Assembly (NCBI GenBank): GCA_965213705.1
Contig: OZ243913.1
Location: 4,128,001 to 4,192,000, forward strand
DNA from: Trueperaceae bacterium
GTDB taxonomy: Bacteria > Deinococcota > Deinococci > Deinococcales > Trueperaceae
Length of the DNA stretch: 64,000 nt
Direction: 5' to 3'
In this document: piece after piece, positions 2-43,642 of the stretch
How the letters are laid out: each line of letters opens with the position of its first letter
Numbering within the stretch: position 1 is the first letter of the stretch
Made by a program: the position numbers and the translations under genes
The notes under the pieces: generated by a model
The model's database searches: none
The model's input: the letters and a program-made list of their open reading frames with translations, nothing else
What the model was told of the DNA's origin: nothing

Positions 2-1804
2 ATTCGCGACCAGGAAAGGCAGGTTAAAAACTACTTGGATGATTTCTCTGTTGACTTGAGCTTCCAAAAACTCAACGGAGAAACTATAGGAAGCGTGGCT
101 AAGGAAAACGAAGTATCCCGCTACGAGTCAATTAAAGATTTGGTCTACAGGCAAAAGCTTCTGCTGACCAATCCCGATGTTTTTAATCTTATCGAAAGCT
201 TTGCCTACACTAGCCCTATCAATCCGGCAACGCTTGCCCAAGAGTTTTCCAGCCTCTTTCGTTATGTGGTTTTTGACGAGTTTCACATTTTTGCGGCTCC
301 GCAGATAGCCGCGATTATCGACGCCATGCTGTTCATTCGGGCAAACGGCAGTGCGAACTTTCCGACTAAGTTTCTATTTCTGTCGGCAACCCCGAGCCCC
401 ATTCTCAGAGACGTCCTGGACAACGCTGATTTCAGGTTCCGAGTTATCGAGGGAAGCTACCAACACGGTCCCAAACCCAAAGGTGCTTACCGAAGCATTT
501 TGCAAGAGGCAACCCTCGAGCTTGAACCCTGCGAGGCAAATACTGGTGGCATTTTGGGGTGGGCAACAAACAATCTCGAGAAAATCAAAGGGTTTTATCG
601 TGAGAATCCGGGAAGTAAAGGGTTGATTATCTGTAACAGCGTATTTACGGCAAAAAAGCTGTATGCCTATTTGCGAGAGGGCTTGGTCGATACGGGAATC
701 TCTTTAGGTGAAAATACAGGTTTGACGGGCAAGGAAGAAAAGCAAAGGTCATTAGAGCAAGACCTTGTTGTGGCGACATCAACAGTGGACGTTGGTGTCG
801 ATTTCCGCATCAACTTTCTTATTTTTGAGTCTTTGAATGCCGGTTCTTTTATTCAACGTTTGGGTCGTTTGGGCAGACATAAAGATTTTCCTGTCTATCA
901 CGCAGTAGCGCTATTGCCACAGTTTTTGGTTGAACGCTTTGCAAAGCATTATCAAGATGGGCAGACGGTTGACAGATGGTCTTTTTTTCAAAACTTGAGT
1001 GAGATTAAAGACGATAAAGCCGAGCAAATTTTTCCGCCGGAACAGGAGTTCAAGCCTTATATCAAACGTTGGGGCGGTGTCAAGGCAGTTCAGCGTCTAG
1101 GCAAGCTCTATAAGTATGGGGGTAAGGACAAATATCAGACACTTATACAGCGCTATCAACCGAATGCCGCTCAGGTTTTCAAGATTGCGAGCACAACCCA
1201 GGCTCGAGCAAGGCGACTTGAACCGGCTGTAAACAAAGAACTGTTCTCCTTCCGGGGTGCCGGACTGATGGACATCTGGACCTTTGACCCTTCTTCAAAA
1301 GCAGTAACTACGGTAAATGTTCTAAGGCTTTTGGCGGGGACAGAGTTTGGGTTGATCAGCAAACAAGAAGCGGAAGCTATCGCCATAATACACAGCACGC
1401 CTTTTTATCCAACTTACCTGAATCTCTACGCCAAAATCCACAGCTATAAGGAGGAGTACGACTTTGTTCAACTCCGCTATCAGCACACTTTTGGAGATGA
1501 TGGTCAAGCTTTCAATCACGCAGCAGACCGCGCCGGGTTTTTACTAGAAGCCGCTCATCCCGATATTCGCAAGGTGAGCCAAGCTCTCGTCAACAAACCT
1601 CTCTGCAGTTGCGTATGTGATAAAGAGCTGAGTGGTGAAAGCCCGCGAAACGCCCAAAGAATTTTGAGTTTGCCACCCCTGTTCAGTTTGGCCCAGGTCA
1701 TCGATAGCACCAACACTTCCTATACCGTTGCCTTTGGTCACGAAGCCCTTCTGCTGGACAGCCTTATTCACTGGCGAAAAATAAACGACTATTTCATTGC
1801 TTGA
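2..1804 (+). CDS. cas3: Type I-D CRISPR-associated helicase Cas3' (5' end outside the window)
   Basis: Frame open from position 2 (IRDQERQV...). SF2 helicase motifs VVFDEFH, FLSAT, ATSTVDVGVD, QRLGRLGRH; directly upstream of cas10d. Confidence 0.93.
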   Translation: MRDQERQVKNYLDDFSVDLSFQKLNGETIGSVAKENEVSRYESIKDLVYRQKLLLTNPDVFNLIESFAYTSPINPATLAQEFSSLFRYVVFDEFHIFAAPQIAAIIDAMLFIRANGSANFPTKFLFLSATPSPILRDVLDNADFRFRVIEGSYQHGPKPKGAYRSILQEATLELEPCEANTGGILGWATNNLEKIKGFYRENPGSKGLIICNSVFTAKKLYAYLREGLVDTGISLGENTGLTGKEEKQRSLEQDLVVATSTVDVGVDFRINFLIFESLNAGSFIQRLGRLGRHKDFPVYHAVALLPQFLVERFAKHYQDGQTVDRWSFFQNLSEIKDDKAEQIFPPEQEFKPYIKRWGGVKAVQRLGKLYKYGGKDKYQTLIQRYQPNAAQVFKIASTTQARARRLEPAVNKELFSFRGAGLMDIWTFDPSSKAVTTVNVLRLLAGTEFGLISKQEAEAIAIIHSTPFYPTYLNLYAKIHSYKEEYDFVQLRYQHTFGDDGQAFNHAADRAGFLLEAAHPDIRKVSQALVNKPLCSCVCDKELSGESPRNAQRILSLPPLFSLAQVIDSTNTSYTVAFGHEALLLDSLIHWRKINDYFIA

Positions 1805-1815
1805 AAGGAGTAGTA

Positions 1816-4800
1816 ATGGATGAAAACGAAGACATCTTAACCGAGTTCAACTTTGAAGACTGGGAAGAGCCTTTAGAACCAAAGGCTTATGAGCAGGTAC
1901 AAAGGCCCCCATTTGCAAAACTCATACTCGACACGGTTCAGGATGCGCCCTCAGCGCTTCAGGATTGGGCAGAACTGGTTGTACCTAAGCTTCTCAGTGT
2001 TCTGGCGCTGCGTAACGCGAAAGGCATGGGCGAGGTCGAAGCGAATCGGTTCTTGGGAAAAACGGATTTCAAGTCAGGTCAGGCTCGAGCCAAAGCGTTC
2101 AAAAAATTAACCGAAATGCCCGATCAAAGTCTCGCCGTTCACACCCTGAATGCGGCTTTGGGTGGCTGGACGGTCGTTGCGCTTGCGAACCTTGATGATT
2201 TCGAGCAACGCCTGTATTTAGCAGGGATAACCTTGCACGACCTCAACAAGATGTTGGGAACAACTCTGCGTTTGCAGGGTGAGCAGAAAGAGGCCTTTGA
2301 GGAAGCTTTCAAAGCCTGGGCTGAACGCCTTGGCCTTTGGCAATTTATAGGCGAAAACCACTGGGCCGATGTTGCTTACTTGGCTCAAAACGCAGAAGCC
2401 GTCAAGGGTGAGAACCGCACACTCTTCAACTACGACCAGTTGCAAACATCACCGGAAGACTTGGAGCCTATCAGCGATTTTGTTCGCTTGGCCGATCTCC
2501 TGGCAAGCGCAGCCAAACACCCTGACGACGTTTTAAACATGGGAGGCGGCAATAAAGTCATAGAAACGCTTCGGCGCGTTCTACGGGGGAAATATATACT
2601 TCGTTACCACAAAACCGCCGACAACCGTGGCTTACTCACCCAACTGATTCACAATGCTGTTTTAGAGCAAGCCCAAGAGAAGGGTTGGCTACCTTTCCTG
2701 TACTTTCCCGACGGCGTGACTTACTTAGTCCCTAAAGAAGCGGAGAACATCAATCTCGAAGACGTTCCCCAGCGAGTTAGGCAAATGCTTGTAGAGTCCG
2801 TAGCCGACAAGCTGGGTCAACTGGTGGCTCGAGCCCCCACCGGAATGCGTTACAAGCCCGAATTTATCGAACTTTTGACACCTGCTCGAGCTTGCAAGTT
2901 GGCAATCCAAAGGATTTTGGAGATTATCAGCGACAAAAAGCCTCCCGTGACCGACGAGCGAAAGGCGAAGACTGTACTCCGCAAAGATGCCACGGTCAAG
3001 CTCGATTTTGACTATGGCGCTTCTCTGAACGCCGACCGATTGGCGGAAGGCTTGTTCGGTGTGTCGAAAATAATCTTCGACTATTACGGGGATGATAGAG
3101 AGACACATGGGGGGTCCCTCATTTGCGCACTTGGGCTGGGGGATTTGGTAGAGACATTCAGGTCTATCGAATTTACAGGCGGCGTGGGTTATCCCTGGTA
3201 CTACATCGGGGGTCACTACATACACCGCAATCCCGGCTTAGATGCCAACGACGTTGAAAACGTGATGCAAAAAGCGGTAACTCAGGTTTTAGGCGACCTC
3301 GGTGAACCGAAAAAAGAGCCCCCTTTCGGCTTTTTGGAAAGTTACATCGGCCAAACACTCAGCACAGGCACCGAGCGTGAAGCATGGAACTTCTCGGGCG
3401 AGTTGGAGCGGTATGTCGTCAGTAAAAAACTACGCAGTGGACAGCGAGTTTGTGCAGTCTGCAACAGTAGCTTTGCTGTAAGAGCAGACTACTCGACATT
3501 TTCTAATAAGCAAGTTGCAGGCTACGCCGATGCGCGCCGCGGTATCTGTCAGATCTGTCAGGCCGAAAATCTACTGCGCCGCTTCACGCTCGGAAAAGAC
3601 ATGCTGTCAGATGACGGCACGAAGTTCTTGCATCTCTACCCAACTTACTTCTTTACACCTATCACAGCGAAGGTGATGCAACACGCCTATCAATCTTTCA
3701 AACAAGCCACTTTTGCCGAAATTGCCAAACCTTATCAGCAAGCCGATTACGAGGTCAGGGCGATTCTCCATGCTGACGTTTTCCAGGTTTTGAAAGCCGA
3801 TAACCCCAAAAGACGACTTGACAGAGTGGACTATCCCGAGGGACAGATGCACGGTTACTTCCTGCTCGGAGTTCCGTACTTGGGGCGCGACCCGAGCGAT
3901 ACCGAGACGTGGGTCATGCCTGCGCTGCTGGCGCTGCTTTCCCCTTTACTGTTCGGCACGAAAGCTGTGGTCAGCGATTCGGCTTTACCGCTGTTTACGA
4001 GCGGTGCGGACTTTCCCGAGACGGTCGTTCTCGACGCGCCCCACAGCTTTTGGCAGCACGGCATAAAGAAAACGAGGTTTCGTCTGGATGAACTCGAGAA
4101 AGGTTTGCATACAGTATTGGCACTTTACGGTTTGGTCAGCGAAGCCTACAAAGACGGCAAGGGTTATGCCATTTGGAATCAGCTCGGCTCGGTGGCTCGA
4201 AACCTCGACTCCGAACCTCTAAGCATCTTCGGCTACGCGGACCGTATCAGCTCACAGCTCAGCAAGGGAAAAAGCACCCTCACAAGCACCGACGGCATGT
4301 CTCCTTGGTTGGCTCAACGTTTAACAACCTACTACGAATCAACGCTGGACTTCTACGAAACTTACTCTTTAGGAGGTACATCAAGAATGGGATTGATTCA
4401 GGAAACCGTCGATAAATATGCGAAGTTTTACAGGGCGCGAGGCTCGAGTTCGGCTTATGCAAGATTGCGTCCCTTGGACGACGCTATCAAAGTTATTCTG
4501 GCTGCACCGACAGAAGAGCAACTCGACCAAGAAAGCTTGCACCTTGAAATTATGGGGGCGCTGATGGCATATCTAGGCAGAATTAGAGATAGAGATCCAT
4601 CGATTAAAGGCATCATTCCTAAAGGTATGTGGAGTGATGATGTCCTACTCCCTGCGGTGAGCGACTTTGCAACCCACATGTTGGACAAGGTGTTTTGTGA
4701 CTTCGCCGGAGGTGACAGGGCAATTTTGAGGAAGCAACTCAACAAGTTCAAAAATGGTTGTGAAGCTTACTACGTTCTTCATTACGGAAGAAAAAAGACG

Positions 4801-4845
4801 GATGAAAGCGCCTCTACAGAAAATCACGAAAAGGAGAGTAGCTGA
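1816..4845 (+). CDS. cas10d: Type I-D large subunit Cas10d (Csc3) with N-terminal HD nuclease domain
   Basis: AAGGAG RBS before ATG 1816; DQSLAVHTLNA and GITLHDLNK (HD); Zn-finger-like CAVC...CQIC; LHLYPTYFFT; about 1009 aa, between cas3' and csc2. Confidence 0.93.
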   Translation: MDENEDILTEFNFEDWEEPLEPKAYEQVQRPPFAKLILDTVQDAPSALQDWAELVVPKLLSVLALRNAKGMGEVEANRFLGKTDFKSGQARAKAFKKLTEMPDQSLAVHTLNAALGGWTVVALANLDDFEQRLYLAGITLHDLNKMLGTTLRLQGEQKEAFEEAFKAWAERLGLWQFIGENHWADVAYLAQNAEAVKGENRTLFNYDQLQTSPEDLEPISDFVRLADLLASAAKHPDDVLNMGGGNKVIETLRRVLRGKYILRYHKTADNRGLLTQLIHNAVLEQAQEKGWLPFLYFPDGVTYLVPKEAENINLEDVPQRVRQMLVESVADKLGQLVARAPTGMRYKPEFIELLTPARACKLAIQRILEIISDKKPPVTDERKAKTVLRKDATVKLDFDYGASLNADRLAEGLFGVSKIIFDYYGDDRETHGGSLICALGLGDLVETFRSIEFTGGVGYPWYYIGGHYIHRNPGLDANDVENVMQKAVTQVLGDLGEPKKEPPFGFLESYIGQTLSTGTEREAWNFSGELERYVVSKKLRSGQRVCAVCNSSFAVRADYSTFSNKQVAGYADARRGICQICQAENLLRRFTLGKDMLSDDGTKFLHLYPTYFFTPITAKVMQHAYQSFKQATFAEIAKPYQQADYEVRAILHADVFQVLKADNPKRRLDRVDYPEGQMHGYFLLGVPYLGRDPSDTETWVMPALLALLSPLLFGTKAVVSDSALPLFTSGADFPETVVLDAPHSFWQHGIKKTRFRLDELEKGLHTVLALYGLVSEAYKDGKGYAIWNQLGSVARNLDSEPLSIFGYADRISSQLSKGKSTLTSTDGMSPWLAQRLTTYYESTLDFYETYSLGGTSRMGLIQETVDKYAKFYRARGSSSAYARLRPLDDAIKVILAAPTEEQLDQESLHLEIMGALMAYLGRIRDRDPSIKGIIPKGMWSDDVLLPAVSDFATHMLDKVFCDFAGGDRAILRKQLNKFKNGCEAYYVLHYGRKKTDESASTENHEKESS
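4387..4845 (+). CDS. cas11d: Cas11d small subunit from an internal in-frame start inside cas10d (152 aa)
   Basis: AGGAGGT at 4371-4377, 9 nt before an in-frame ATG at 4387 (MGLIQETVDKYAKFYRA...); matches the known internal translation of Cas11 in type I-D. Confidence 0.8.
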   Translation: MGLIQETVDKYAKFYRARGSSSAYARLRPLDDAIKVILAAPTEEQLDQESLHLEIMGALMAYLGRIRDRDPSIKGIIPKGMWSDDVLLPAVSDFATHMLDKVFCDFAGGDRAILRKQLNKFKNGCEAYYVLHYGRKKTDESASTENHEKESS

Positions 4846-5771
4846 TGTTCGACGCATATGAAAAATACTTCCATACGGCAATCCCTCTGCGCCCCGGTGC
4901 AAAGTACGCCCACATCCTAGTTCTCCGCAAAACGGAAAGTTACGCAGTTTTCAAAACAGATGGCGAACTCAACACTGCTAGGGTTAGCTCGGGTCTCGAG
5001 GATAAAACACAAATCTCACGCTTGACGATTTTCAAACGCAAACAGACCACCCCCGAGCGCTTGACAGGCCGAGAGATTTTGCGCCGTTACGAACTCTTAC
5101 CCGCTGACGACCAGTACAACGTGAACTTCACACCCGACTCGCCCGACTCGGTCATTTACGGCTACGCTATTGGTGATTCGGGGTCTGAAAAGTCGAAGGT
5201 CTATGTAGACACAGCCTTTTCTCTCACCAACTACGACGTTTCCCACGAAACGATGACGCTGAACGCGCCTTACGAGGACGGCACCATGACGCGGGGCAGC
5301 AGCACCACAAACCGTTTTAGCGAACAAGACCATGTTCTGCCGGAAGTTTATTTTCCGAGCGTCGTCACCGTTCGAGACCCTACCCAAAATACGCTTGCTT
5401 ACGTCATCAACAACATCAGACGTACCAAACGTTACGGCGCACAAACAACGCGAACCGGACAAGTGTCCAACCAAATCGTCGGCCTTATCTTTGCCGACGG
5501 GGAGATTTTCAGCAATTTACGGCTTGTCCAAGCGATGCACGACCTTTTGGAAAGCGACAAAACCCTCAGCCAAGACGCTGCGATGGTACAGGTCGCCCGC
5601 GACCTCGTAGCACGCGACGGCGTCATTTACGAACTGGTCACGGGTGAACAGCTCGAGGTGTTGCTCACCGAACTCGATGCTGTTTTTACGGATGAAACGC
5701 AGTTGAAAACCTTTTTGACCGACCTCTACAGCGAAACGAAAGCCTACGCTGAATCCGTGAAAAACCAGTAG
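4845..5771 (+). CDS. csc2: Type I-D Cas7 (Csc2) backbone subunit
   Basis: FKRKQTTPERLTGRE, YGYAIGDSGSEKSKV, RYGAQTTRTG are characteristic of Csc2; TGATG coupling to cas10d. Confidence 0.92.
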   Translation: MFDAYEKYFHTAIPLRPGAKYAHILVLRKTESYAVFKTDGELNTARVSSGLEDKTQISRLTIFKRKQTTPERLTGREILRRYELLPADDQYNVNFTPDSPDSVIYGYAIGDSGSEKSKVYVDTAFSLTNYDVSHETMTLNAPYEDGTMTRGSSTTNRFSEQDHVLPEVYFPSVVTVRDPTQNTLAYVINNIRRTKRYGAQTTRTGQVSNQIVGLIFADGEIFSNLRLVQAMHDLLESDKTLSQDAAMVQVARDLVARDGVIYELVTGEQLEVLLTELDAVFTDETQLKTFLTDLYSETKAYAESVKNQ

Positions 5772-5776
5772 CAGTT

Positions 5777-6433
5777 ATGCATGCTTACCACCTAGAGATT
5801 GACTTACATGACCTCATGTACTACGCTTCTCGCGAACTGGGGCGCATGTACATCAGTGAGCGCTATATCCACAATTACGCGCTGACCTACGCCTTGGGTT
5901 TAGCTAAGAGTGGCTATCACGACGCGGTTCAGGTGCCTCACTACCGAGAAGACTTGGAACCTCTGAATGACGCTGGAGTTTATGTCACTCCTGCCAAACC
6001 CATCCGTGTGGAAACGTCTACGCATACGTTCAAGCTCGCAGACACTCGGTACCAGGTCAAAATGGAGCAGTCGAGCGTCAACATTCCCACCTTTGGACGC
6101 ATTCGCGAGATAAACCCCGAATCGCGTTATGAAGCCTTCGTTCTTACGAAGGAGAAGCTCGAGCTTCCCAAGTGGATTCGGCTTGGTAAGTGGATGAGCA
6201 AAGCCTCGGTAGCAACTGCAGAAGTCGAAGTGAGTGAGGGAAAGAAAACGTTTAGCACTTTGCACCCTCTCAATGGTCTCGACTTACCTTTCGACGCGAA
6301 GCTTTACGACCTTATCAACATGCCTCCGGTCTCTCTTATCGAAAATGCAAGGTTTGAGGGCGAGTGCTACACCCTGAAGCTGAGCGAGAAAGAGACTCGC
6401 GAGTTTCCAAAAGGACTAAGGTACACCTTCTAA
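5777..6433 (+). CDS. csc1: Type I-D Cas5 (Csc1)
   Basis: YYASRELG, IHNYALTYALG, LPKWIRLGKWMSKA, LNGLD...DLINMPPVSLI motifs. Confidence 0.92.
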   Translation: MHAYHLEIDLHDLMYYASRELGRMYISERYIHNYALTYALGLAKSGYHDAVQVPHYREDLEPLNDAGVYVTPAKPIRVETSTHTFKLADTRYQVKMEQSSVNIPTFGRIREINPESRYEAFVLTKEKLELPKWIRLGKWMSKASVATAEVEVSEGKKTFSTLHPLNGLDLPFDAKLYDLINMPPVSLIENARFEGECYTLKLSEKETREFPKGLRYTF

Positions 6434-7233
6434 TGCCCCATGCTTTCCTCCTCCACCTCACCCCCACCACCCGCGCCCCCGACCACCCCTACCTCCACCA
6501 GTACACCCACGGCCTCTTCTATCACCTGTTGGAAACCATTCATCCCGCGCTGAGCGCCGACATTCATGCCAGCAAGCGCAACCCCTTCACGCTTTGGGCC
6601 AGGGAAAAGGACGGCGGCATCTTGCTGCGCGTGACCGTCCTGAACGATACCCTCTTTCAATCGCTGCTCGAGGTGGTGTTGCAAGAATCCTTGACGGGCC
6701 TGGAGCTGGGCCAGGACAGCTACCGGGTGGCGAGGGTATTAGCGACGCCGGAAGGCCACCGGGACGCGGGCTTCTTAGGCTGGGAAGATGTTTTATGTGC
6801 CCGGCCCGTGAACAGGCTCGAGCTGCGCTTCGTCACGCCGACGGTGTTTGCGACCTCGAAAGGGAAAAAGCGGCACTACACGCCGCTACCCCTGCCGAGG
6901 CTGGTGCTGAAAAGTTTGCTGAACGCCTTTCAAGCCTACAGCCCCGCGCCCTACAGCGAGCCGGAAGCGGCGGGGTTGGAGGCTATGTTCGACGAACTGT
7001 TCGTCGTCACAAGTCACGATATTGCCACAAAGCCCCACAAAGCGGGCAAGGTCAGGCTGACCGGCTTCGTGGGGCGGGCGAGCATTCGCTATCAAGAGGC
7101 GTCGGGGCGGGTCGAGAAAGCGCTCGGGCAGCTTGCCAGCCTCGTCTTTTTCAGCGGGGTGGGGGCGAAGACGCCTTACGGGATGGGGCAGGTGCGTGTA
7201 AAGGTTGGAAGCGGGCAAGTTGGTAGCAAGTAA
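6433..7233 (+). CDS. cas6: CRISPR pre-crRNA endoribonuclease Cas6
   Basis: TAATG coupling at 6431-6435; F.TPT.F and C-terminal G-rich loop FSGVGAKTPYGMG. Confidence 0.93.
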   Translation: MPHAFLLHLTPTTRAPDHPYLHQYTHGLFYHLLETIHPALSADIHASKRNPFTLWAREKDGGILLRVTVLNDTLFQSLLEVVLQESLTGLELGQDSYRVARVLATPEGHRDAGFLGWEDVLCARPVNRLELRFVTPTVFATSKGKKRHYTPLPLPRLVLKSLLNAFQAYSPAPYSEPEAAGLEAMFDELFVVTSHDIATKPHKAGKVRLTGFVGRASIRYQEASGRVEKALGQLASLVFFSGVGAKTPYGMGQVRVKVGSGQVGSK

Positions 7234-7464: not shown

Positions 7465-7600
7465 CCGTCACTGCGCCGCTCGCTGGCAGCCGCTTCTATC
7501 CCTGTAAACCTCATCCGTAAGCCTCGTTGGAAGCTCGTTGGAACGCCGTCGTTTACGCTTGTCTCGAGCCCGAGACGCCTATCCGATGTACGGAGGTTCT

Positions 7601-8161
7601 ATGGAATATTTGCCCATCAGCAAAATCAACACGGTCGTTTTTTGCCCGCGCCGCTACTACATCGAGCAGCTTTTGGCGGACACCGTGACGAACTATCACA
7701 TGACCGAGGGCACGGCGCTGCACGAGCGCACGGTGCGGACAGGCGAAGGCGTGTGGGTGTGGAGCAACTGCCTGGGCGTCAGCGGGATTATCGATCAGGT
7801 CGTACACGAGGACGGCGAGTGGGTCATCACCGAGTTCAAAAAGGGCTACCTCGGTGAGCACGAGAGCGACCGGGTGCAACTCTGCGCGCTCGCAGTTTGC
7901 TATGAGGAGGTTCACGGCGTGCATCTGAGTCACGGCTACATCTACTACCACCGCACCCGCAGGCGCAGCTTGGTCGAATACACACCCGAGCTGCGGCAGC
8001 GGGTCGAGGCGGCGGTCGCCCTGATGCGTAGGCTCGAGCAGCAAAGCCACTACCCGCCGGTCATCGACAACCCCAACAAATGCCAAGGGTGCAGCGTGCG
8101 CGAACCCTGCCAGCCGACGCTGACGCGCAGGCAGTTACCCCGCTGGAAGGGAGCAGTGTGA
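7601..8161 (+). CDS. cas4: CRISPR-associated exonuclease Cas4
   Basis: GGAGG RBS before ATG 7601; FCPRR, GIID...EFKKG, QLCALA, C-terminal C..C.....C Fe-S cysteines. Confidence 0.93.
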   Translation: MEYLPISKINTVVFCPRRYYIEQLLADTVTNYHMTEGTALHERTVRTGEGVWVWSNCLGVSGIIDQVVHEDGEWVITEFKKGYLGEHESDRVQLCALAVCYEEVHGVHLSHGYIYYHRTRRRSLVEYTPELRQRVEAAVALMRRLEQQSHYPPVIDNPNKCQGCSVREPCQPTLTRRQLPRWKGAV

Positions 8162-9135
8162 TGGGTACGCTCTACGTTTTAGAACCTGACGTCTACCTGT
8201 CCAAAGACGGCGGCGTGCTGAAAGTTTCGCGCAGCAAGGGGCGGGAGGTGCTTCTCGAGCGCCCCCTGGCCCACGTGTCCGACGTGGTGATTTTGGGCCG
8301 GGCGACGGTCACTTCGTCGGCCCTTCAAGCCTGCGCCGAGCAGGGCACGGCGATTCACTACCTCACCCGCGGCGGCAAGTACGTGGCGCAGGTCGCCCCC
8401 GTCGAAAACAAAAACGTGCTGGTGCGCATCAAGCAGTACGAAGCGTACCTAAACCCCGAGTGGAAACACAGCTTGGCGCGGCGTTTTGTCGAGGGCAAGC
8501 TCGCCAACGCTATCGTCTTCGCGCGGCGGGGAGGCGCGGAGGTGGGCAGTTTGATGGCGCTCGTCAAACCTATCGCAAGGTGCGACAATACGGAAGCCTT
8601 GCGGGGGCTCGAGGGCAACGCCGCCCGGCTCTACTTCGGCCTCTTGAAAGACAAGTTCCCGGCAGCGTTCGCGCCCGAGTCGCGCAGTAAACGCCCGCCA
8701 CGCGACCGCGCCAACAGCTTGCTGTCGCTCGCCTACACCTTTTTAGCCAAAGAATGCCAGACGGCGGTCCGGGTGGCCGGGCTCGACCCGTATGTGGGCT
8801 ACCTGCACGAAGCCAAGTACGGCAAACCCGCCCTCGCCCTGGACCTGATGGAAGAGTTCCGCTCTATCATCGCCGACTCGGTGACGCTGACGCTCTTCAA
8901 CCGCGGCATGATTACCGAAGACATGTTCGAAGACGAGCGCGGCTATCCGACCCTGGCCGACGAAGGCTTCAAGCAGTTTTTACGAGCCTGGGAAGACCGC
9001 CTCAACCAACAGGTACACCACCCGTACCTCAAACAAAAGCTCGACTACCGGCAGGTGCTGGTGGCGCAGGCGCGCATTTTGGGCAAGCACCTCATGGGCG
9101 AACTGCCGGAGTATCTCCCCTTTACCGTGCGCTGA
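8161..9135 (+). CDS. cas1: CRISPR-associated integrase Cas1
   Basis: MGTLYV start coupled to cas4 stop; LRGLEGNAARLYF, RPPRDRANSLLSLAY, GYLH, LALDLMEEFR. Confidence 0.96.
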   Translation: MGTLYVLEPDVYLSKDGGVLKVSRSKGREVLLERPLAHVSDVVILGRATVTSSALQACAEQGTAIHYLTRGGKYVAQVAPVENKNVLVRIKQYEAYLNPEWKHSLARRFVEGKLANAIVFARRGGAEVGSLMALVKPIARCDNTEALRGLEGNAARLYFGLLKDKFPAAFAPESRSKRPPRDRANSLLSLAYTFLAKECQTAVRVAGLDPYVGYLHEAKYGKPALALDLMEEFRSIIADSVTLTLFNRGMITEDMFEDERGYPTLADEGFKQFLRAWEDRLNQQVHHPYLKQKLDYRQVLVAQARILGKHLMGELPEYLPFTVR

Positions 9136-9413
9136 TGTTTTACCTCGTCATCGCCTACGACACGCCCAGCGACAAGCGGCGCATCAAAATGGTGAAGCTC
9201 CTGAAGCGCTTCGGCGAGCGGCGGCAGTACAGCCTGTTCGAAGCGAGGGTCAGCCGCGACCAGTTGGCGACGTTGCAAACCTCGCTGGCTAAAATCGCCG
9301 ACGAAACCGAAGACACACTGGCGATTTACTTCTTGACACCGGAAAGTTTGCAGCGAACTTTCCGCATCGGCCACAGTGAGATAAAATCTTTAAGGGAGCC
9401 TGACTTTGTTTAG
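9135..9413 (+). CDS. cas2: CRISPR-associated protein Cas2
   Basis: MFYLVIAYDTPSDKRR...RRQYSLFE; 92 aa; TGATG coupling to cas1. Confidence 0.95.
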   Translation: MFYLVIAYDTPSDKRRIKMVKLLKRFGERRQYSLFEARVSRDQLATLQTSLAKIADETEDTLAIYFLTPESLQRTFRIGHSEIKSLREPDFV

Positions 9414-9635
9414 CGAGCACCGGAGCACCGTTACGCAGAACGACTATGTCGGCGCTGGTTTTTGCGTCGCTCACGTAAACAGTGTTGCTTTATCAGCCCG
9501 CGGGGTGCTCGCAAGCGTCTACGACGGCAAAACTTCCTTTTTAAGCTTCACCCGACAAGCATTTGCTACACTGGCGGAGCGGGTTCTCGTGAAGGTGCTG
9601 CGAGGCTCGTCCAGTCGGCCCGAAAAACGCCCGCG
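9414..9635 (+). promoter_or_regulatory. CRISPR leader
   Basis: Non-coding 222 bp between cas2 and the first intact repeat; the degenerate repeat is at the opposite end; candidate extended -10 TGCTACACT near 9564-9572. Confidence 0.7.
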
Positions 9636-12016
9636 CTTGCAATAACTTCGAACCTCGTAGAGGATTGAAACACTCGAAGAGGAGGCCCGGATGGTTGACG
9701 GCTTCACTTGCAATAACTTCGAACCTCGTAGAGGATTGAAACACGCTCGAGGCGCAGCTCGTGGGACTCGACCTAAACTTGCAATAACTTCGAACCTCGT
9801 AGAGGATTGAAACTGCGTACCAGGTTTTCACAGCGCCACCGCCTCGACTTGCAATAACTTCGAACCTCGTAGAGGATTGAAACTCGTTGTACATCCATAC
9901 GCGCAACCGGTCACGCAACTTGCAATAACTTCGAACCTCGTAGAGGATTGAAACAACGGCGAGGGGGATGATGACCGTGCTGGCGAACACTTGCAATAAC
10001 TTCGAACCTCGTAGAGGATTGAAACTTCACCAAACCGGGTGCGACGTTGGAGATGTAGACTTGCAATAACTTCGAACCTCGTAGAGGATTGAAACACTCG
10101 ATTTTCTTTTTCGGATGGTTGACGGCTTCACTTGCAATAACTTCGAACCTCGTAGAGGATTGAAACTTTATACTAACACACGTAGGTTAGTAATGCAATA
10201 CTTGCAATAACTTCGAACCTCGTAGAGGATTGAAACTCAAAAGGAATGCCGAGCTGTTGAAGGATAGCTTGACTTGCAATAACTTCGAACCTCGTAGAGG
10301 ATTGAAACACTTTGTTGTAATCGTCAGCCGTCCAAACGACGTTCTTGCAATAACTTCGAACCTCGTAGAGGATTGAAACATGGATTCCCAGTCGAGAAGG
10401 CCGTGCGCCACGTCCTTGCAATAACTTCGAACCTCGTAGAGGATTGAAACGTTACTTACCGAGCTGTCCCGGCGCTCATGAGCCCGCTTGCAATAACTTC
10501 GAACCTCGTAGAGGATTGAAACTTATTGAAAAAGGTTCACCACAATGCGCACATGTTACTTGCAATAACTTCGAACCTCGTAGAGGATTGAAACCTGTTG
10601 GAAGAGAGGCTCGAGCTTCCAATCATCTTGCAATAACTTCGAACCTCGTAGAGGATTGAAACAGAGGGTTGAGGACGCTTAAACGGCCCGTGCCGCCTTG
10701 CAATAACTTCGAACCTCGTAGAGGATTGAAACACAGTAAAAACCCAAGTGGTATAGCCCCATCACCTCCTTGCAATAACTTCGAACCTCGTAGAGGATTG
10801 AAACTGGCGCAAGGTCGCCATGCAACTGTTTCAGGACAACTTGCAATAACTTCGAACCTCGTAGAGGATTGAAACCTTTTTGCTCGAGACAGGGACTACC
10901 TCACCATTGACTTGCAATAACTTCGAACCTCGTAGAGGATTGAAACAAAGTTGGACTACCGAGGTAAATACCTCGTCATCTCCTTGCAATAACTTCGAAC
11001 CTCGTAGAGGATTGAAACACCCACCGGGGCCGCATCGTCACCCTGAAAGAACTCTTGCAATAACTTCGAACCTCGTAGAGGATTGAAACAACTCTGTCCA
11101 ATAACTCACTGTTCACCTCCTGACACTTGCAATAACTTCGAACCTCGTAGAGGATTGAAACTTTGGACGTTGAACGTACTGCTGAGCATCGCCTTCCTTG
11201 CAATAACTTCGAACCTCGTAGAGGATTGAAACAATTTTACCTCAACGACAACCTGAAAATCATCCACTTGCAATAACTTCGAACCTCGTAGAGGATTGAA
11301 ACCCTTTGCCCCGCACGGTGGCCCGCTCGAAGGGGTTGCTTGCAATAACTTCGAACCTCGTAGAGGATTGAAACACAAGCTAACCCGGCTTAGCACGCTG
11401 CTCACGCTAACTTGCAATAACTTCGAACCTCGTAGAGGATTGAAACTCTTTTGGTACGGCCGCCTGCACATCCATGTTGAACTTGCAATAACTTCGAACC
11501 TCGTAGAGGATTGAAACGGCCTGCTATCGTAGCAAGCGAAGGCGGGGCCAGCTTGCAATAACTTCGAACCTCGTAGAGGATTGAAACATAGCTCAGTACG
11601 ACGTGACCAACGGCGTTTGGAAACTTGCAATAACTTCGAACCTCGTAGAGGATTGAAACCTCAGAGATGAGTTTCATCCCCAACTCTTTCCCGGCGTCTT
11701 GCAATAACTTCGAACCTCGTAGAGGATTGAAACAGCGTCCAGAGATTCGCCGGAGACGCGGCGTAGCCTTGCAATAACTTCGAACCTCGTAGAGGATTGA
11801 AACTCGACACCCTTACGAATCGCTAGATTCTCGGTGTCTCTTGCAATAACTTCGAACCTCGTAGAGGATTGAAACCGGGACAGTCTTTACGCGGCGCTCG
11901 CCACGGCAACCCTTGCAATAACTTCGAACCTCGTAGAGGATTGAAACGAGACGTCGCCGTTCCAGGCGGCGATGACCATGCTTGCAGTAACTTCGAACCT
12001 CGTAGAGGATTGGAAT
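9636..12016 (+). CRISPR. CRISPR array: 34 repeats (36 bp CTTGCAATAACTTCGAACCTCGTAGAGGATTGAAAC) and 33 spacers of 32-38 bp
   Basis: Repeats read directly from 9636-9671 to 11981-12016; last repeat degenerate (CTTGCAGTAA...GATTGGAAT); CCTC-GTA-GAGG stem and ATTGAAAC 3' handle. Confidence 0.99.
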
Positions 12017-26885: not shown

Positions 26886-27761
26886 TTATGCTGCTAACCT
26901 TTCCAAGCTCTGGGCTTCATAGCTTACAGGTGTCTCATAGCCCAGGCTGCTGTGGAGCCGCCAGCGGTTGTAATAGCCTTCGATAAACTCGAATACGGCA
27001 AGCCTCGCCTCCTCACGAGTGGCGAAGGTGGTTTGGTAAACGAGTTCTTTTTTCAAGGTAGCGAAGAAGCTTTCGATATAGGCGTTGTCTAAGCACGCGC
27101 CGGTGCCGGTAAAGCTCGGCCGCATCCCCCAGGTCGCCAGCTCCCGCTGATAGGCGTGACTCGTATACTGAGAACCCTTATCCGAGTGGTGGATAAGCCC
27201 CTTGCAGACGTGGCGCTGCTTGGTTGCCATCCGTAACGCCTGAACGACGAGGTCGGTTCGCATGTGCCTGTCCATCGCATAACCGACGACGCGCTTGGAG
27301 TAGGCGTCCATCACCGCGGCTAGATAAAGCCAGCCCTCAGCCGTCTTGATCAGGGTGATGTCCGAGTACCAAACCTGATTGGCAGCCGTGATGTCGGGCT
27401 TGGGCACGAGCAGGTTTGCTGTTTGCAGCGTATCTAAGGCTTTGCGCTGCTTATATTTGTGTTTGGGTACAGCGTAAATGCCAGCTTGCCGCATCAACCT
27501 TTTCACCCTCCGAAGCGAGCAAACAACACGTCGTTTACGCAATTCGGCGTGGATGCGGGGGCTACCATAGCGCTTACAGCTCTCCTCGAAGATAGCGTTG
27601 ATCTGCTCTAGCAGCGTTGTGTCCTCTCGTTCGCGCGCCGAAGGTCCTAGATTTGCCCGAGTCAGATAGCCGTAGAACCCGCTCCTGGATACCCGCATCA
27701 GCTTACACATCAGCGCTACTGGGTAGAAAGCGCGCCACGACGCGATAAAGGCAAATCTCAC
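26886..27761 (-). CDS. IS3-family transposase OrfB (DDE)
   Basis: YGSPRI, NQVWYSDITLI, WLYLAAVMD, HHSDKGSQY, DNAYIESFF, YNRWRLHSSLGY. Confidence 0.95.
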   Translation of the reverse strand: MRFAFIASWRAFYPVALMCKLMRVSRSGFYGYLTRANLGPSAREREDTTLLEQINAIFEESCKRYGSPRIHAELRKRRVVCSLRRVKRLMRQAGIYAVPKHKYKQRKALDTLQTANLLVPKPDITAANQVWYSDITLIKTAEGWLYLAAVMDAYSKRVVGYAMDRHMRTDLVVQALRMATKQRHVCKGLIHHSDKGSQYTSHAYQRELATWGMRPSFTGTGACLDNAYIESFFATLKKELVYQTTFATREEARLAVFEFIEGYYNRWRLHSSLGYETPVSYEAQSLERLAA

Positions 27762-28060
27762 CTCTGATTCCTCGCAAAGTACGCGCTCGCCTTTTTTAGA
27801 ATCTCGTTCTCCATCTCCAAGCGCTTGTTCTCTGCCCGCAAGCGCCTCAGTTCTGCCTCTTCAGTCGTCGGCTGTGCCCTTTTGTGTCCTGGCGCGAGCC
27901 GCCCGTCGCGATATTGCTTGCGCCAGTTCGACAGGTTCGACTTCGGTATGCCCAACCGTTGCGCCGCTTCAGGAACGCTATATCCCTGCTCCTCGACCAG
28001 CCGCACCGCGTCTAACTTGAACTCAACCTCATACTGCCGCACAACCCGTTTCTCACTCAT
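27758..28060 (-). CDS. IS3-family transposase OrfA (HTH), with A6G frameshift window
   Basis: YEVEFKLDAVRLV...LSNWRKQ...ENEILKKASAYF; CTAAAAAAGG slippery site near 27790-27799. Confidence 0.93.
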   Translation of the reverse strand: MSEKRVVRQYEVEFKLDAVRLVEEQGYSVPEAAQRLGIPKSNLSNWRKQYRDGRLAPGHKRAQPTTEEAELRRLRAENKRLEMENEILKKASAYFARNQR

Positions 28061-28530
28061 TTGGACCCCTTTCGAGACTTTCAATTCGTCTCTACTTTAG
28101 GTGTCCGCCACCCTGTCACCAAGTCCAGCCTTGTTCGGCAAGAACCAGCAGTTGAAAGTGCGTGAGCTTGAAGGTGCCTGTAATCAGACCCAAGTTATCG
28201 CTTATCTTGAAACCCTAGCCGAGAGTTGCAATCCCAAGCGCATTACCGTGGTTGTTCTCGACAACGCACCCTTTCATAAAGGCAAACAACTCACCCAGCG
28301 TCGAGCCGCCTGGGAAGCGAGAGGTCTTTATCTACGTTACTTGCCCGCTTACTGTCCACAACTCAATCTCATCGAGGGCATCTGGCGCAAGCTTAAAGGT
28401 TTCCTCATGCCCAGGCGCTGCTACGACACTCTCAAGCAGCTACAAGAAGCCCTCTTACTCGCACTTAAAGCCCTAAACGCAGTCTTTATCTAAATCTTTG
28501 CCGGGAGATACTTAGATTCAGCTACTCCCC

Positions 28531-29004
28531 TCAAACACAACAGGCCCCGCCTCTCGCCGAGGGCACAACTACGGGGGCATTCCCAGCTTGCTCGTACCGC
28601 GGTTTGCACGCGACCCCCGGCACGCTCAGGCTCACTCTCACGGCGTCGCCTGCCACATCCACACCACCAACCAGGTAACTGATGGCAGGTTCACCTATAT
28701 CCCCGTACTCGAAGCGCAGCACGGCCCCACCGTCGATGGGCACACTCGAGGCGACGCTGCCGTAGATGTCGAGGAATTTCCCGACCGTCATATAGCCTTC
28801 ACGGCTCGAGTCAGGTGCCCAAAGCTGCACCACGGTTTCGTTCCAAGCGTTCGCTCTACCGCCGCAGTCCATCGATCGTACCGTGACCGCCTTAACCTCC
28901 GTGACGTGGTAGCCGGGGGCTATGGTGCGCTCCCCGAGGTCGAAAACCAAAGCCCTGCTCTTGTTGTAGGTTTGCAGCTTATCCAGAAAAGTTTGGGTAT
29001 CCAT
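28531..29004 (-). CDS. DUF6428-family protein (arsenic-cluster associated), C-terminal CC
   Basis: GYHVTEVK...MDCGG...WNETVVQLW...FEYG; ends ACCV. Confidence 0.75.
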   Translation of the reverse strand: MDTQTFLDKLQTYNKSRALVFDLGERTIAPGYHVTEVKAVTVRSMDCGGRANAWNETVVQLWAPDSSREGYMTVGKFLDIYGSVASSVPIDGGAVLRFEYGDIGEPAISYLVGGVDVAGDAVRVSLSVPGVACKPRYEQAGNAPVVVPSARGGACCV

Positions 29005-29013
29005 GTTCGTCTC

Positions 29014-29205
29014 CTAAGCGGGGCAGCACTCGGCTGTTGACCGAGGCGCTGCTGTGAACTTAACTGCTGCGAGCCTGGCAAAGACCGCGCCCGACTCGCT
29101 GACGAGGTGCCGACGCTGGAGCCTGGCAACATAGGCTTCGTGCCGGAGTGCTTGCACACGCGCTTGGGCGAGCTTACTGGCGAAGTAATAAATCTGGGTA
29201 TCCAT
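29014..29205 (-). CDS. 63-aa hypothetical peptide ending in ECCPA
   Basis: AAAGGAG RBS, ATG at 29205; in line with the DUF6428 gene and divergent from arsR. Confidence 0.6.
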   Translation of the reverse strand: MDTQIYYFASKLAQARVQALRHEAYVARLQRRHLVSESGAVFARLAAVKFTAAPRSTAECCPA

Positions 29206-29217
29206 ATCGTCTCCTTT

Positions 29218-29334
29218 GCATAGACACTCGTCTATGCTTCCTTCTGGCTTGACTATACGCTGTATATAGATGGTTGTCAATATGTTCTGAGCTATGACGC
29301 ATAGATGACGCTCTATTGATAGACTAGGGTCTAT
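29218..29334. promoter_or_regulatory. Four ArsR/SmtB-type operator palindromes (ATAGAY-N4-GTCTAT) in the divergent promoter
   Basis: GCATAGAC-ACTC-GTCTATGC 29218-29237; ATAGAT-GGTT-GTCAAT 29266-29281; ATAGAT-GACG-CTCTAT 29301-29316; ATAGAC-TAGG-GTCTAT 29319-29334. Confidence 0.75.
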
Positions 29335-29650
29335 GACTGGTTTATCCGACGAACTCAAGGTGCTGGGCGACCCTACCCGCCTCAAGATTCTGGACTTTCT
29401 GCTCGAGCCCGTCCAGAGCTGTTGCAGCCGCGACGACGGCGTGTGCGGCTGCGACCTCGAAGCGTTCTTGGGGCTTACCCAGCCCACCGTGAGCCACCAC
29501 ATGAAGCAGCTTGTAGCGGCAGGCTTCGTCACGGCTGAGAAGCGCGGGCGCTGGGTGTACTATGACCTCGACCCCGAAGGCTTCCGCACCGTGCAGGATG
29601 CTCTCAACAAATACGCCACTGCCCCCGTACCAATGAGGGAGCCCGCCTGA
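29333..29650 (+). CDS. arsR: ArsR/SmtB-family repressor
   Basis: LKVLGDPTRLKIL, CC...VCGCDL, LTQPTVSHHMKQL, KRGRWVYY. Confidence 0.92.
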   Translation: MTGLSDELKVLGDPTRLKILDFLLEPVQSCCSRDDGVCGCDLEAFLGLTQPTVSHHMKQLVAAGFVTAEKRGRWVYYDLDPEGFRTVQDALNKYATAPVPMREPA

Positions 29651-30102
29651 TGCGCCTGCTGGTGCTCTGCACCCACAATTCAGCCAGAAGCCAGATGGCC
29701 GAAGGTTGGCTGAGACATTACGCCAACGAGGTTGGCTTAAAGGCGGAAGTGTTCTCGGCGGGCACCGAAAAGGCCTTTGTGAAACCGGAGGCCGTGACGG
29801 TGATGCAAGAGGTCGGCATTAACCTCTCCGGCCACAGCTCAAAAACGCTTTTCGAGCTGCCCGACATGTGGAACTTCGACGTGGTGCTGACGGTGTGCGA
29901 CAGCGCCAACGAAGCCTGCCCCGCCTACCCCGCGCAGACCACACGCCTGCACGTGTCGTTTCCCGACCCCACAGGAAAGCCGCTCGAGACCTGGCGCGAG
30001 GTGCGCGACGCGATAGGCGTGACCTGCAAGAACCTGATCAAAACTTTGAAAGCAGGTGACACACCTACCGAAGAAGCGCTCTCGGCGCAGGTAAGAGTAT
30101 GA
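29650..30102 (+). CDS. arsC: Arsenate reductase ArsC (LMW-PTPase fold)
   Basis: [29 protein letters not shown]. Confidence 0.9.
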   Translation: MRLLVLCTHNSARSQMAEGWLRHYANEVGLKAEVFSAGTEKAFVKPEAVTVMQEVGINLSGHSSKTLFELPDMWNFDVVLTVCDSANEACPAYPAQTTRLHVSFPDPTGKPLETWREVRDAIGVTCKNLIKTLKAGDTPTEEALSAQVRV

Positions 30103-30788
30103 CCCCTCGTATCTGGCTGGCAGAGTTTATCGGCACCTTTGCTCTGCTGTTCGTGGGCGTCGGTGCCGTAGCGTCCGGGGCGAGTGGTCTCGCCGTGGCT
30201 TTCGCCTTCGGCCTAACGGTGGCCGTGATGATAGCGGCGGTCGGCCCCATCTCCTTCGCCCACTTCAATCCCGCCGTGACGGTGGGCTTTTTCGTGCTGC
30301 GGCGCATTACCTTCAGAGAGTTGCTGCTGTACTGGAGTGCGGAGCTGGCAGGTGCAACGGCTGCCATGCTCGCCCTACAAACGTTTTATGGCGCGCAGCG
30401 GCTCGAGCCCGTCGCCTACGGCGCGACCCTACTCGCACCCGGCGTGTCTGCAGTTCAGGGCGTGGCAATAGAGGTCATCCTGACCTTCTTTCTGATGTTC
30501 GTCATTGCTACCTGTGTCATCCAGAAGCAGGCTTTGGCAGGGGTTTACATCGGCTTCACGGTGACGCTCGGCGCGATTGCCGGGGGTGCCATGACGGGCG
30601 CGTCGCTGAACCCGGCGAGGAGCTTCGCCCCGGCCCTTTTTGCGGGCGACTGGTCACAGCACTGGCTCTACTGGCTCGCGCCAATCGTCGGCGCATCCGT
30701 CGCGGCGCTCGCAGCGACCTATTTGTGGCAACCTACGCACGATGTACAAGAAGGCAGCAGCCCCGCGCTGCAACGGGTGGGGGACTAA
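30099..30788 (+). CDS. MIP-family aquaporin/aquaglyceroporin (probable arsenite channel)
   Basis: [24 protein letters not shown]; inside the ars operon. Confidence 0.92.
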
Positions 30789-41665: not shown

Positions 41666-42469
41666 ATGCCTTCGACAGCCAATTCCACCAGCGCAGAGCT
41701 TAAAACGCCGCGTCCAAAGTACGGAGAGGTGCTTGCTCTAAGGCGTGAGGAGGTGGGTTTCGCGAGGCAAATTGAGGTTTCTCAGCGCTCGCTCGAACTT
41801 GCTGCTGAAGCTACTGAACACTTCGAGTCTTTTAGCCAACAGTGGCTCTCACGCCTCGAGGCAGACCAGACAGGCGAACGAATCGATGCGGCGAACCGGC
41901 GTAAACTCCGCACCCTTTCTTACCTGCTGGGCTGGAATAGCTTTGACTTCGAGCATCATGTCGGCATTCCAGTGGGGACGGTACCGGGCTTGGGAGAGGT
42001 TGGCGAGAATAAGGTCGTCACCTTTAGAGAGCGTGGTGACGACCCGAGTAGCTTACGCGTGCGCATTCCTGTTTACTCGAGTATAGCTGCCGGGGTCAAA
42101 AGCTTCACAAAGGACGAGACCCCGCCGAGCTACCACTATTTCGAGCCAGATGAGCTACCTAAAGGTGTCAATCCAAACAAGCTCTATCTCGTATGCGCTA
42201 CGGACACAAGTCTGTATGAGGTGAACCTGGTATTTCCTGTGCCGGAAGGTGCCCGACTCCTTATCGAGACGGGTAGACCGCCGAAAGAAGGTCAACTGGT
42301 TATCGCTTACCTTCCTGAGTTGGATATAGGTGTCATCAGACAGCACCAAAGCCAGGCGAGGGAGGTGATTTTGCGTAGTTATCGCGTAGGTGGCCCTGTG
42401 TTCTGGGCGAGCGGACATCCCGAACTGAGGGTCGAAGGCATCGTGCGGCTCGTGAGTTACGAGCCTTGA
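41666..42469 (+). CDS. CI/LexA-like repressor (HTH plus S24 peptidase-like domain)
   Basis: SQQWLSRLE HTH; IPVYSSIAAG cleavage-site motif; TDTSL serine motif; GQLVIA. Confidence 0.8.
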   Translation: MPSTANSTSAELKTPRPKYGEVLALRREEVGFARQIEVSQRSLELAAEATEHFESFSQQWLSRLEADQTGERIDAANRRKLRTLSYLLGWNSFDFEHHVGIPVGTVPGLGEVGENKVVTFRERGDDPSSLRVRIPVYSSIAAGVKSFTKDETPPSYHYFEPDELPKGVNPNKLYLVCATDTSLYEVNLVFPVPEGARLLIETGRPPKEGQLVIAYLPELDIGVIRQHQSQAREVILRSYRVGGPVFWASGHPELRVEGIVRLVSYEP

Positions 42470-42480
42470 GGAGGCTAGCG

Positions 42481-43581
42481 GTGGGTCGGAATGCACCAGG
42501 TGAAGGACAAGCTCCCCACAAATGGCGGGGCAAGTGGCGCGGAAGTATTTTTGTCAATTACGACGAGAAAGGGAAACAAAAACGCAAATACTGCTACGGA
42601 AAAACCCGCGAAGACTGCTTGACAAAGTGGAACGCTTTAAAGCGCCAACAACAAGACGGCACGCTGCCCACGGGACCAAGCTTAACTGTGAAACAGTGGT
42701 TCGACCACTGGCTGCAAGTCAAAGACAAGGAGATAAGTTCACGTACCTTGGAAGACTACGGCTACACGCTGAGACACATCCTTCCCCACATCGGCCGGAC
42801 CAAGCTTGATAAACTGACACCTTTGCAGGTTCAACGTATGCAGCTGGCTGTTGCAGATGCAGTCAGTGCTCGAGCCGCGGTGCAAGCACGAGGCCTTGTC
42901 CATAACGCCCTCGACGACGCTCTAAAGCTCGGTCTCGTGGCGCGCAACGTCGTGGCAGCGGTTGCTCCGGTCAAGTACGAAAAGCCCGAATTTCAGATTT
43001 GGACGGCTGCGGAAGTTGTGAGATTTTTAGAGTTCGCCAAAGCCTCACCCTACTACTCCCTTTACTACACAGCCTTGACCCTCGGTATGCGTCCTGGTGA
43101 ACTTATCGCTCTGCACTGGGACGACATAGCCGGCACCAAGGTGCATGTGAGGCACAACGTTTCCATCATTAAAAACAAGCCCGTTTTGGGTGCGCCCAAG
43201 ACCAAGCGGGGCAACCGTATCCTCACGCTGCCGGACGATACTTTAGAAGTTCTAAAACAGCACCGAGAAGCCTTGGCACAAGACAGGTGTGACAGCCCAC
43301 TCGTCTTTCCAAGCCGCACGGGCGGCTTTTTGCAGCACGGCAACCTGCTGCGCACCCTGCGCCTTTACAGTGAACGTGCCGAGGTTACACAAGTGCGGAT
43401 GCACGATTTGCGCCACACTTACGCTTCGATGCGGATTGCTCACGGGGCAGACATTGTCAGGCTATCCCGAGACTTGGGTCATGCCAACGCTAGCTTTACA
43501 CTGGATGTTTACGCCCACCTGTTCACAAAGCATCAGCAACATGAGGCACCCTCGCTCAACGAACTAGTGGGGATGGTTTGA
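42481..43581 (+). CDS. Tyrosine integrase (phage/ICE type)
   Basis: N-terminal arm-binding GEG...KRKYCYGKT; catalytic GMRPGE, PKT, HDLRHTYAS, LGH, TLDVYAH. Confidence 0.96.
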   Translation: MGRNAPGEGQAPHKWRGKWRGSIFVNYDEKGKQKRKYCYGKTREDCLTKWNALKRQQQDGTLPTGPSLTVKQWFDHWLQVKDKEISSRTLEDYGYTLRHILPHIGRTKLDKLTPLQVQRMQLAVADAVSARAAVQARGLVHNALDDALKLGLVARNVVAAVAPVKYEKPEFQIWTAAEVVRFLEFAKASPYYSLYYTALTLGMRPGELIALHWDDIAGTKVHVRHNVSIIKNKPVLGAPKTKRGNRILTLPDDTLEVLKQHREALAQDRCDSPLVFPSRTGGFLQHGNLLRTLRLYSERAEVTQVRMHDLRHTYASMRIAHGADIVRLSRDLGHANASFTLDVYAHLFTKHQQHEAPSLNELVGMV

Positions 43582-43595
43582 ACTTTTAACTGGCT

Positions 43596-43642
43596 AGTGG
43601 GTATATCAGTGGGTATTTCGGTGAATTCACCGAAATACCCAC
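43596..43642. repeat. Direct repeats AGTGGGTAT plus a perfect 34-bp palindrome (43609-43642), probable integrase arm sites
   Basis: GTGGGTATTTCGGTGAATTCACCGAAATACCCAC is its own reverse complement; AGTGGGTAT at 43596 and 43608, AGTGGGGAT at 43566. Confidence 0.8.

Follow-up and report, generated by a model that had tools for sequence, protein, structure and literature searches.

The window, a stretch of 64,000 nucleotides analysed here as a whole, carries on its plus strand a series of cas genes followed by a CRISPR array. Profile matches place cas3', the gene of the type I-D helicase, at 35..1804 (TIGR03158, 176.9 bits against a cut-off of 69.1), followed by cas10d for the large subunit (1801..4845; TIGR03174, 333.7 bits against 60), cas7d/csc2 (4845..5771; TIGR03157), cas5d/csc1 (5777..6433; TIGR03159), cas6 (6364..7233; TIGR01877, 55.9 bits, slightly below the cut-off of 58.65), cas4 (7538..8161; TIGR00372), cas1 (8080..9135) and cas2 (9135..9413; TIGR01573). 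The cas1 product scores above the cut-off of the general Cas1 model, TIGR00287, and at 324.3 below the cut-off of 385 of the Cas1d model. The stretch between cas2 and the first repeat (9414..9635) is by its position the presumed leader, and the array itself (9636..12016) comprises 34 repeats of 36 nt, the last degenerate, and 33 spacers of 32-38 nt. Judged by gene content, this is a CRISPR-Cas system of type I-D with a complete gene set upstream of its array.

The gene order, from cas3', cas10d, cas7d, cas5d, cas6 and cas4 to cas1 and cas2, then leader and array, resembles that of type I-D systems with Cas4-assisted acquisition, as far as these are described in the sections of PMC10212523 used here. 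The genes are no different from those in that description, whereas the locus here appears to lie inside an integrated conjugative element of about 100 kb. The cas locus is likely carried by such an element, because conjugation genes lie downstream of the array, an integrase gene (42466-43581) adjoins a tRNA-Met gene, and a 46-bp direct repeat of the tRNA-Met end occurs at both borders, its second copy about 99.6 kb upstream. The putative element spans about 99.6 kb (C1:4072044-4171729 of the genome, comprising window positions 12036-43729 and upstream DNA) and contains VirB4-, VirD4- and TrbL-like genes, Prim-Pol, D5-like replication genes and a tyrosine integrase. A perfect 34-bp palindrome lies between the integrase and tRNA-Met (43609-43642). 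At 26886-30788, an integrase-core transposase-like gene (rve, HTH_21) is followed by genes for a member of the low-molecular-weight phosphatase family and for a MIP channel, a small cluster which we take to resemble those for arsenic resistance.

Elsewhere in the genome, two type I-E-like arrays (C1:2187321-2202346) have slightly different repeats and about 20 and 32 units, with no spacer similar to spacer 1 or 7 of the type I-D array. The type I-D repeat has its nearest plasmid matches in Thermus and Allomeiothermus records, which suggests that the host probably belongs to the Deinococcota. The array is an ordinary type I-D array, and the pair of spacers considered below is of an uncommon but not unique kind.

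Two spacers that differ by one block

Spacer 1 (9672..9706), the leader-proximal and by position newest spacer, has a core (9678-9687) with a purine tract like a Shine-Dalgarno (SD) sequence, followed by an ATG at 9691, while spacer 7 (10096..10130) has the same flanks around a core (10102-10111) in which nine of ten bases are T. As the first-pass annotation had described, both are 35 nt long with the same ends, match at positions 1-6 and 17-35 (25/25) and differ at every one of positions 7-16. The longest word they have in common measures 19 nt, and the runner-up among the 528 pairs of the array reaches 9 nt. We agree with the same annotation that neither point-mutation escape nor plain duplication gives such a pair. 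The ten mismatches form a single run, which ten scattered mismatches would do with a probability of 1.4e-7, and neither chance nor scattered drift explains this. The equal length weighs little, the chance that two spacers in the array agree in length being 0.29. No other of the 33 spacers, nor any type I-E spacer of the genome, overlaps the spacer 1/7 site or any other. A micro-inversion was rejected: the cores are not reverse complements, and when the 9-nt loop that lies between the 3-nt inverted arms of spacer 7 is turned round, 4/10 of the spacer 1 core bases agree. Titles and abstract openings in the literature searched contain nothing on block-swapped spacer pairs, nor does the portion of PMC13739734 consulted.

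The sequence of spacer 1 contains AGGAGG 5 nt upstream of its ATG, and the claimed contrast of an SD in spacer 1 with none in spacer 7 is supported by predicted pairing with the tail of the host 16S rRNA (-12.3 versus -1.1 kcal/mol); 159 of 20,000 random cores equal or exceed the strength of the spacer 1 core. Among 3,728 surveyed spacers, only 20 carry AGGAGG-N4-8-ATG and 8 have a T-run like the spacer 7 core. In the genome, 43 of 65 AGGAGG-N5-ATG sites are start-like and 10 are internal; scrambled SD controls are start-like too, in 5/11, 3/8 and 4/9 cases (12/28 in all). Tests of gene overlap and of T-run location gave no support for a gene junction: the 8-nt gene overlap that both spacers would imply is found in 1/128 cases and is not typical, and genome T-runs are barely enriched outside ORFs (52/208, against 18% of the genome). 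Both spacers are open in a plus frame (LEEEARMVDGF in spacer 1, LDFLFRMVDGF in spacer 7) and in a minus frame (EAVNHPGLLFE and EAVNHPKKKIE), and a codon model scores the two strands alike (3.3 versus 3.4 and 2.2 versus 2.9). The 39-codon ORF with a stop that the annotation had pointed out at 9691-9810 does exist as sequence, running through repeats 2-3; as a feature of the transcript it is likely incidental, and the repeats that make it up are expected to be cut by Cas6.

Read support and the search for a target

The block-swapped pair is a real oddity, one member of which, spacer 1, is seen in the assembly only. We compared the contigs of four sequencing runs (X1-X4), of which X1 may be the source sample. 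Spacer 7 is reproduced exactly by an X1 contig over 10068-10158, at a depth of 507 and with no alternative letter. No contig runs across spacer 1 in any of the four runs, so that spacer 1 is known from this assembly alone; contigs of X2-X4 span neither spacer, and most other spacers are also without contigs in X1. Depth sums in X1, divided by the expected word copies, come for three records that depend on spacer 1 to 438, 499 and 460 per copy if spacer 1 is absent and to 350, 373 and 418 if it is present; three records of single-copy controls lie at 436-500 per copy. The X1 depth thus leans weakly toward spacer 1 being absent, or in the minority, in that sample. Where the same repeats are joined by alternative paths of equal length, assemblers collapse these, and depth may be lost at a T-run. 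Because of this path collapse, the gaps at other spacers and possible depth loss at the T-run, the lack of a spacer 1 contig is weak evidence. A true newest spacer would, moreover, be expected to be missing often from part of a population.

The X1 and X2 contigs both stop inside cas2 at about 9152, and one X1 contig seems to hold a one-base longer repeat before spacer 27 (11482-11517); strain mixture or read errors may lie behind either.

The collections searched yielded no protospacer for spacers 1, 7, 2 or 6. In the genome itself there is no self-target: the shared 19-nt tail has one match with 3 mismatches, beside unrelated upstream DNA, and BLAST of all 33 spacers returned short, chance-level matches only. 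A host 14-mer spanning the spacer 1 core was dismissed as chance, 6 of the 33 spacers having one. Eight scans of viral contigs found no locus with both flanks together, two with the tail and none for spacers 2 and 6. With relaxed flanks there were at least 120 viral loci, none of which fits the remaining spacer among the matches listed; head plus core of spacer 7 was present at 20 loci and that of spacer 1 at 2, with at most 6/16 of the remaining tail bases in agreement; and the SD-plus-start pattern gave 7 loci with identities of at most 22/35. The same pattern occurs in 5 of 363 other genomes of the phylum, at identities of at most 21/35, and a gene with the SD and start of spacer 1 was found neither there nor in the viral contigs.

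Other collections gave a similar picture. Metagenome contigs contain 111 tail matches, the best with 3/6 head and 7/10 core bases. Genome contigs contain at least 119 loci, many of them reading like one conserved gene on the opposite strand, and none fits the rest of the spacer; the best locus of these and the relaxed viral scans together reaches 27/35 among the matches listed. Tail matches with 2 mismatches occur in 11 of 127 family genomes, without head or core, and in a search with the whole array 7 of the 127 matched in an apparently repeat-like manner. Phage collections gave 2 weak records only, and plasmid collections 19 records, 16 of them repeat-like matches in Thermus or Allomeiothermus, with no protospacer. 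The first-pass annotation had proposed a switchable 10-nt cassette, to be sought as further cores between the same flanks. Among the matches listed for the collections searched, both flanks together occur only in the two array copies; the best match outside these that is listed, with 22/25 flank bases, lies in unrelated genes.

Spacer 1 agrees over 9 residues with a Rhizobium protein, presumably primase-like (L222, 26/35 nt), which was taken as chance among 238 rows. Two metagenome loci (L106 and L119) have a long hairpin with the shared 18-nt tail as one arm and, immediately ahead of the other, the 8 bases with which spacer 1 begins; this is probably chance.

Same-site spacer pairs in the order

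Matches to Cas1 turned up in 163 of 299 genomes belonging to the order. Our survey took in 140 regions, mostly around the Cas1 matches listed (150 of 281), together with two stretches of the genome itself, and 115 of these 142 regions held arrays. After 14 arrays with fewer than 4 spacers had been dropped, 128 arrays with 3,771 spacers and 125,419 pairs remained. Pairs were counted on the same strand with a register within 4 nt, in arrays that are cut at region ends and in genomes whose kinship makes them not independent. On this count there are 84 same-site pairs, of which 44 are exact duplicates, occurring in 22 of the 128 arrays, and 40 are non-identical. Among the latter, 18 are identical in their overlap but have different ends, marking independent captures, and 22 are mismatched: 10 have 1-3 mismatches, 10 have at least 4 in other patterns, and 2 are clean blocks.

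The two clean-block pairs are spacers 1/7, which were selected for this property, and spacers 119/129 of an array in another genome (L516, G220), which match over 8 positions, differ at 7 of the next 9 and match again over 15, so that three codons are swapped in an open frame. Since this second swap has neither SD nor poly-T, block swaps need no cassette. Repeated sampling of a site is therefore commonplace in this order, and block differences, though infrequent, do recur. The suggestion of the first-pass annotation that one site had been re-acquired is accordingly plausible, given the 40 non-identical same-site pairs. In one array of 151 spacers (L472, G235), many spacers overlap on both strands and have short repeats within them, which looks like heavy sampling of a small repetitive element.

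How the pair may have arisen

We consider it about an even chance (roughly 0.5) that spacers 1 and 7 represent two alleles of an invader that were captured independently at one PAM, the difference between them probably lying at a ribosome-binding site and stemming from short-tract recombination. The target would be a single site, on a phage or other mobile element, existing in two versions that differ by the 10-nt block. Spacer 7 would have been captured first; positions 7-16 of the site would then have been replaced at once, probably when a related element or copy recombined with it over a short tract. As the block reaches into the seed, the guide made from spacer 7 would no longer bind the replaced version. 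This version would later have been captured again at the same favoured PAM, giving spacer 1. The parts of PMC10212523 drawn on give the first 8-10 nt as the type I seed and GTN/GTH as the I-D PAM, and in the E. coli type I-E system a block of mismatches from position 7 abolished Cascade binding (PMC5904413, in part). DNA ahead of a gene start would tolerate a block change, and no programmed switch would be needed. Within the two-allele reading, the site probably lies upstream of a gene start (SD, then M-V-D-G-F) rather than in a coding interior.

Seen directly are the sequences of the pair, the order in which they stand in the array and the gene set; both alleles and their order we infer, since no protospacer or PAM was found in the collections searched. 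Independent capture of one protospacer through biased sampling has been described in the text seen of PMC4524480, and as in the re-acquired or duplicated spacers treated there, two spacers with the same start stand here in one array; the difference is that one clean 10-nt block separates them, as in only 2 of our 22 mismatched pairs, this one included. Phage T4 escapes CRISPR by recombination at homologies of 3-13 nt, mainly through deletions (PMC8262927, in the part available), and the step proposed here is likewise a one-step change of the protospacer by recombination at very short homologies. The changes reported there for T4 are deletions, small insertions and mostly single substitutions, whereas here a 10-nt stretch is replaced without change of length. 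The two-allele reading does not account for the near-all-T core of the older spacer 7. If it is true, the array is a small record of an invader that escaped through replacement of a block and was then captured again, a way of escape less common than by point mutation or deletion, which would be useful but ordinary to know; the record would also fall in a subtype without priming data, as type I-D is presented in the sections seen of PMC10212523.

A lesser but substantial chance remains that spacer 1 is a product of the array or of the assembly: spacer 7 would have been copied to the leader end and the T-rich core of the copy overwritten, either by template switching onto a neighbouring repeat or by a consensus over reads with different first spacers. 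The identical register and the coincidence of both ends are what a copy would also give, and the exact duplicates in 22/128 arrays point the same way. Nucleotides 2-12 of spacer 1 match repeat nucleotides 19-29 at 10/11 positions, the best of the 33 spacers, a fit equalled in 11 of 2,000 shuffles and by 0 of 1,500 null cores scored against the repeat alone. However, once the leader and spacer 2 are added as templates the match is not significant (44/400), and an equally good match of a spacer to its own repeat is seen in 14 of 500 surveyed cases. Of the core bases, moreover, the repeat accounts for only 6/10; where the switch is supposed to have occurred there is a mismatch, and the kept length is left unexplained. 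The X1 data, with a contig for spacer 7 and none for spacer 1, and with depth sums that fit the absence of spacer 1 better, favour an artefact, but the absent contig weighs little and part of the population would be expected to lack a newest spacer. Were spacer 1 an artefact, it would warn that, in assemblies of a single contig, spacers at the leader end have to be backed by reads.

It is unlikely that the two spacers derive from two copies on one invader, such as paralogous genes or the repeat-variable-repeat units suggested in the first-pass annotation, with head and tail in common. A multi-copy site would be sampled more often, and arrays such as L472 and L469 do hold many spacers against repetitive targets. 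Yet none of the 33 spacers, or of the type I-E spacers of this genome, overlaps the site otherwise, and the metagenome, family-genome and listed genome-contig matches revealed no family of repeats that combines this tail and head.

An invader with a programmed 10-nt switch at its ribosome-binding site, in which an SD means on and a U-tract off and each swap also removes the CRISPR seed match, would explain the pair as a record of both states, and would amount to an expression switch doubling as immune escape. We hold this to be quite improbable. The block does coincide with the SD window, predicted pairing with the 16S tail is strong in one state and absent in the other, and both states are rare among surveyed spacers; but two states only are seen, the cores as read from the sequence are not reverse complements, no donor, recombinase or inverted repeat is known, and the literature search found no paper joining the elements of such a switch.

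Least credible is a diversity-generating retroelement read on the minus strand, with spacer 7 as template repeat and spacer 1 as variable repeat (E-A-V-N-H-P-K-K-K-I-E to E-A-V-N-H-P-G-L-L-F-E), because 6/6 flank adenines are unchanged, so that changes are not spread along the repeat, one mismatch faces G, the host genome shows no reverse transcriptase, no TR/VR context was seen, and the SD on the opposite strand would be chance, even though both spacers are open in frame and 9/10 mismatches face adenine on the spacer 7 minus strand, above the criterion in the consulted part of PMC8144416 that at least 75% of mismatches face template adenines.
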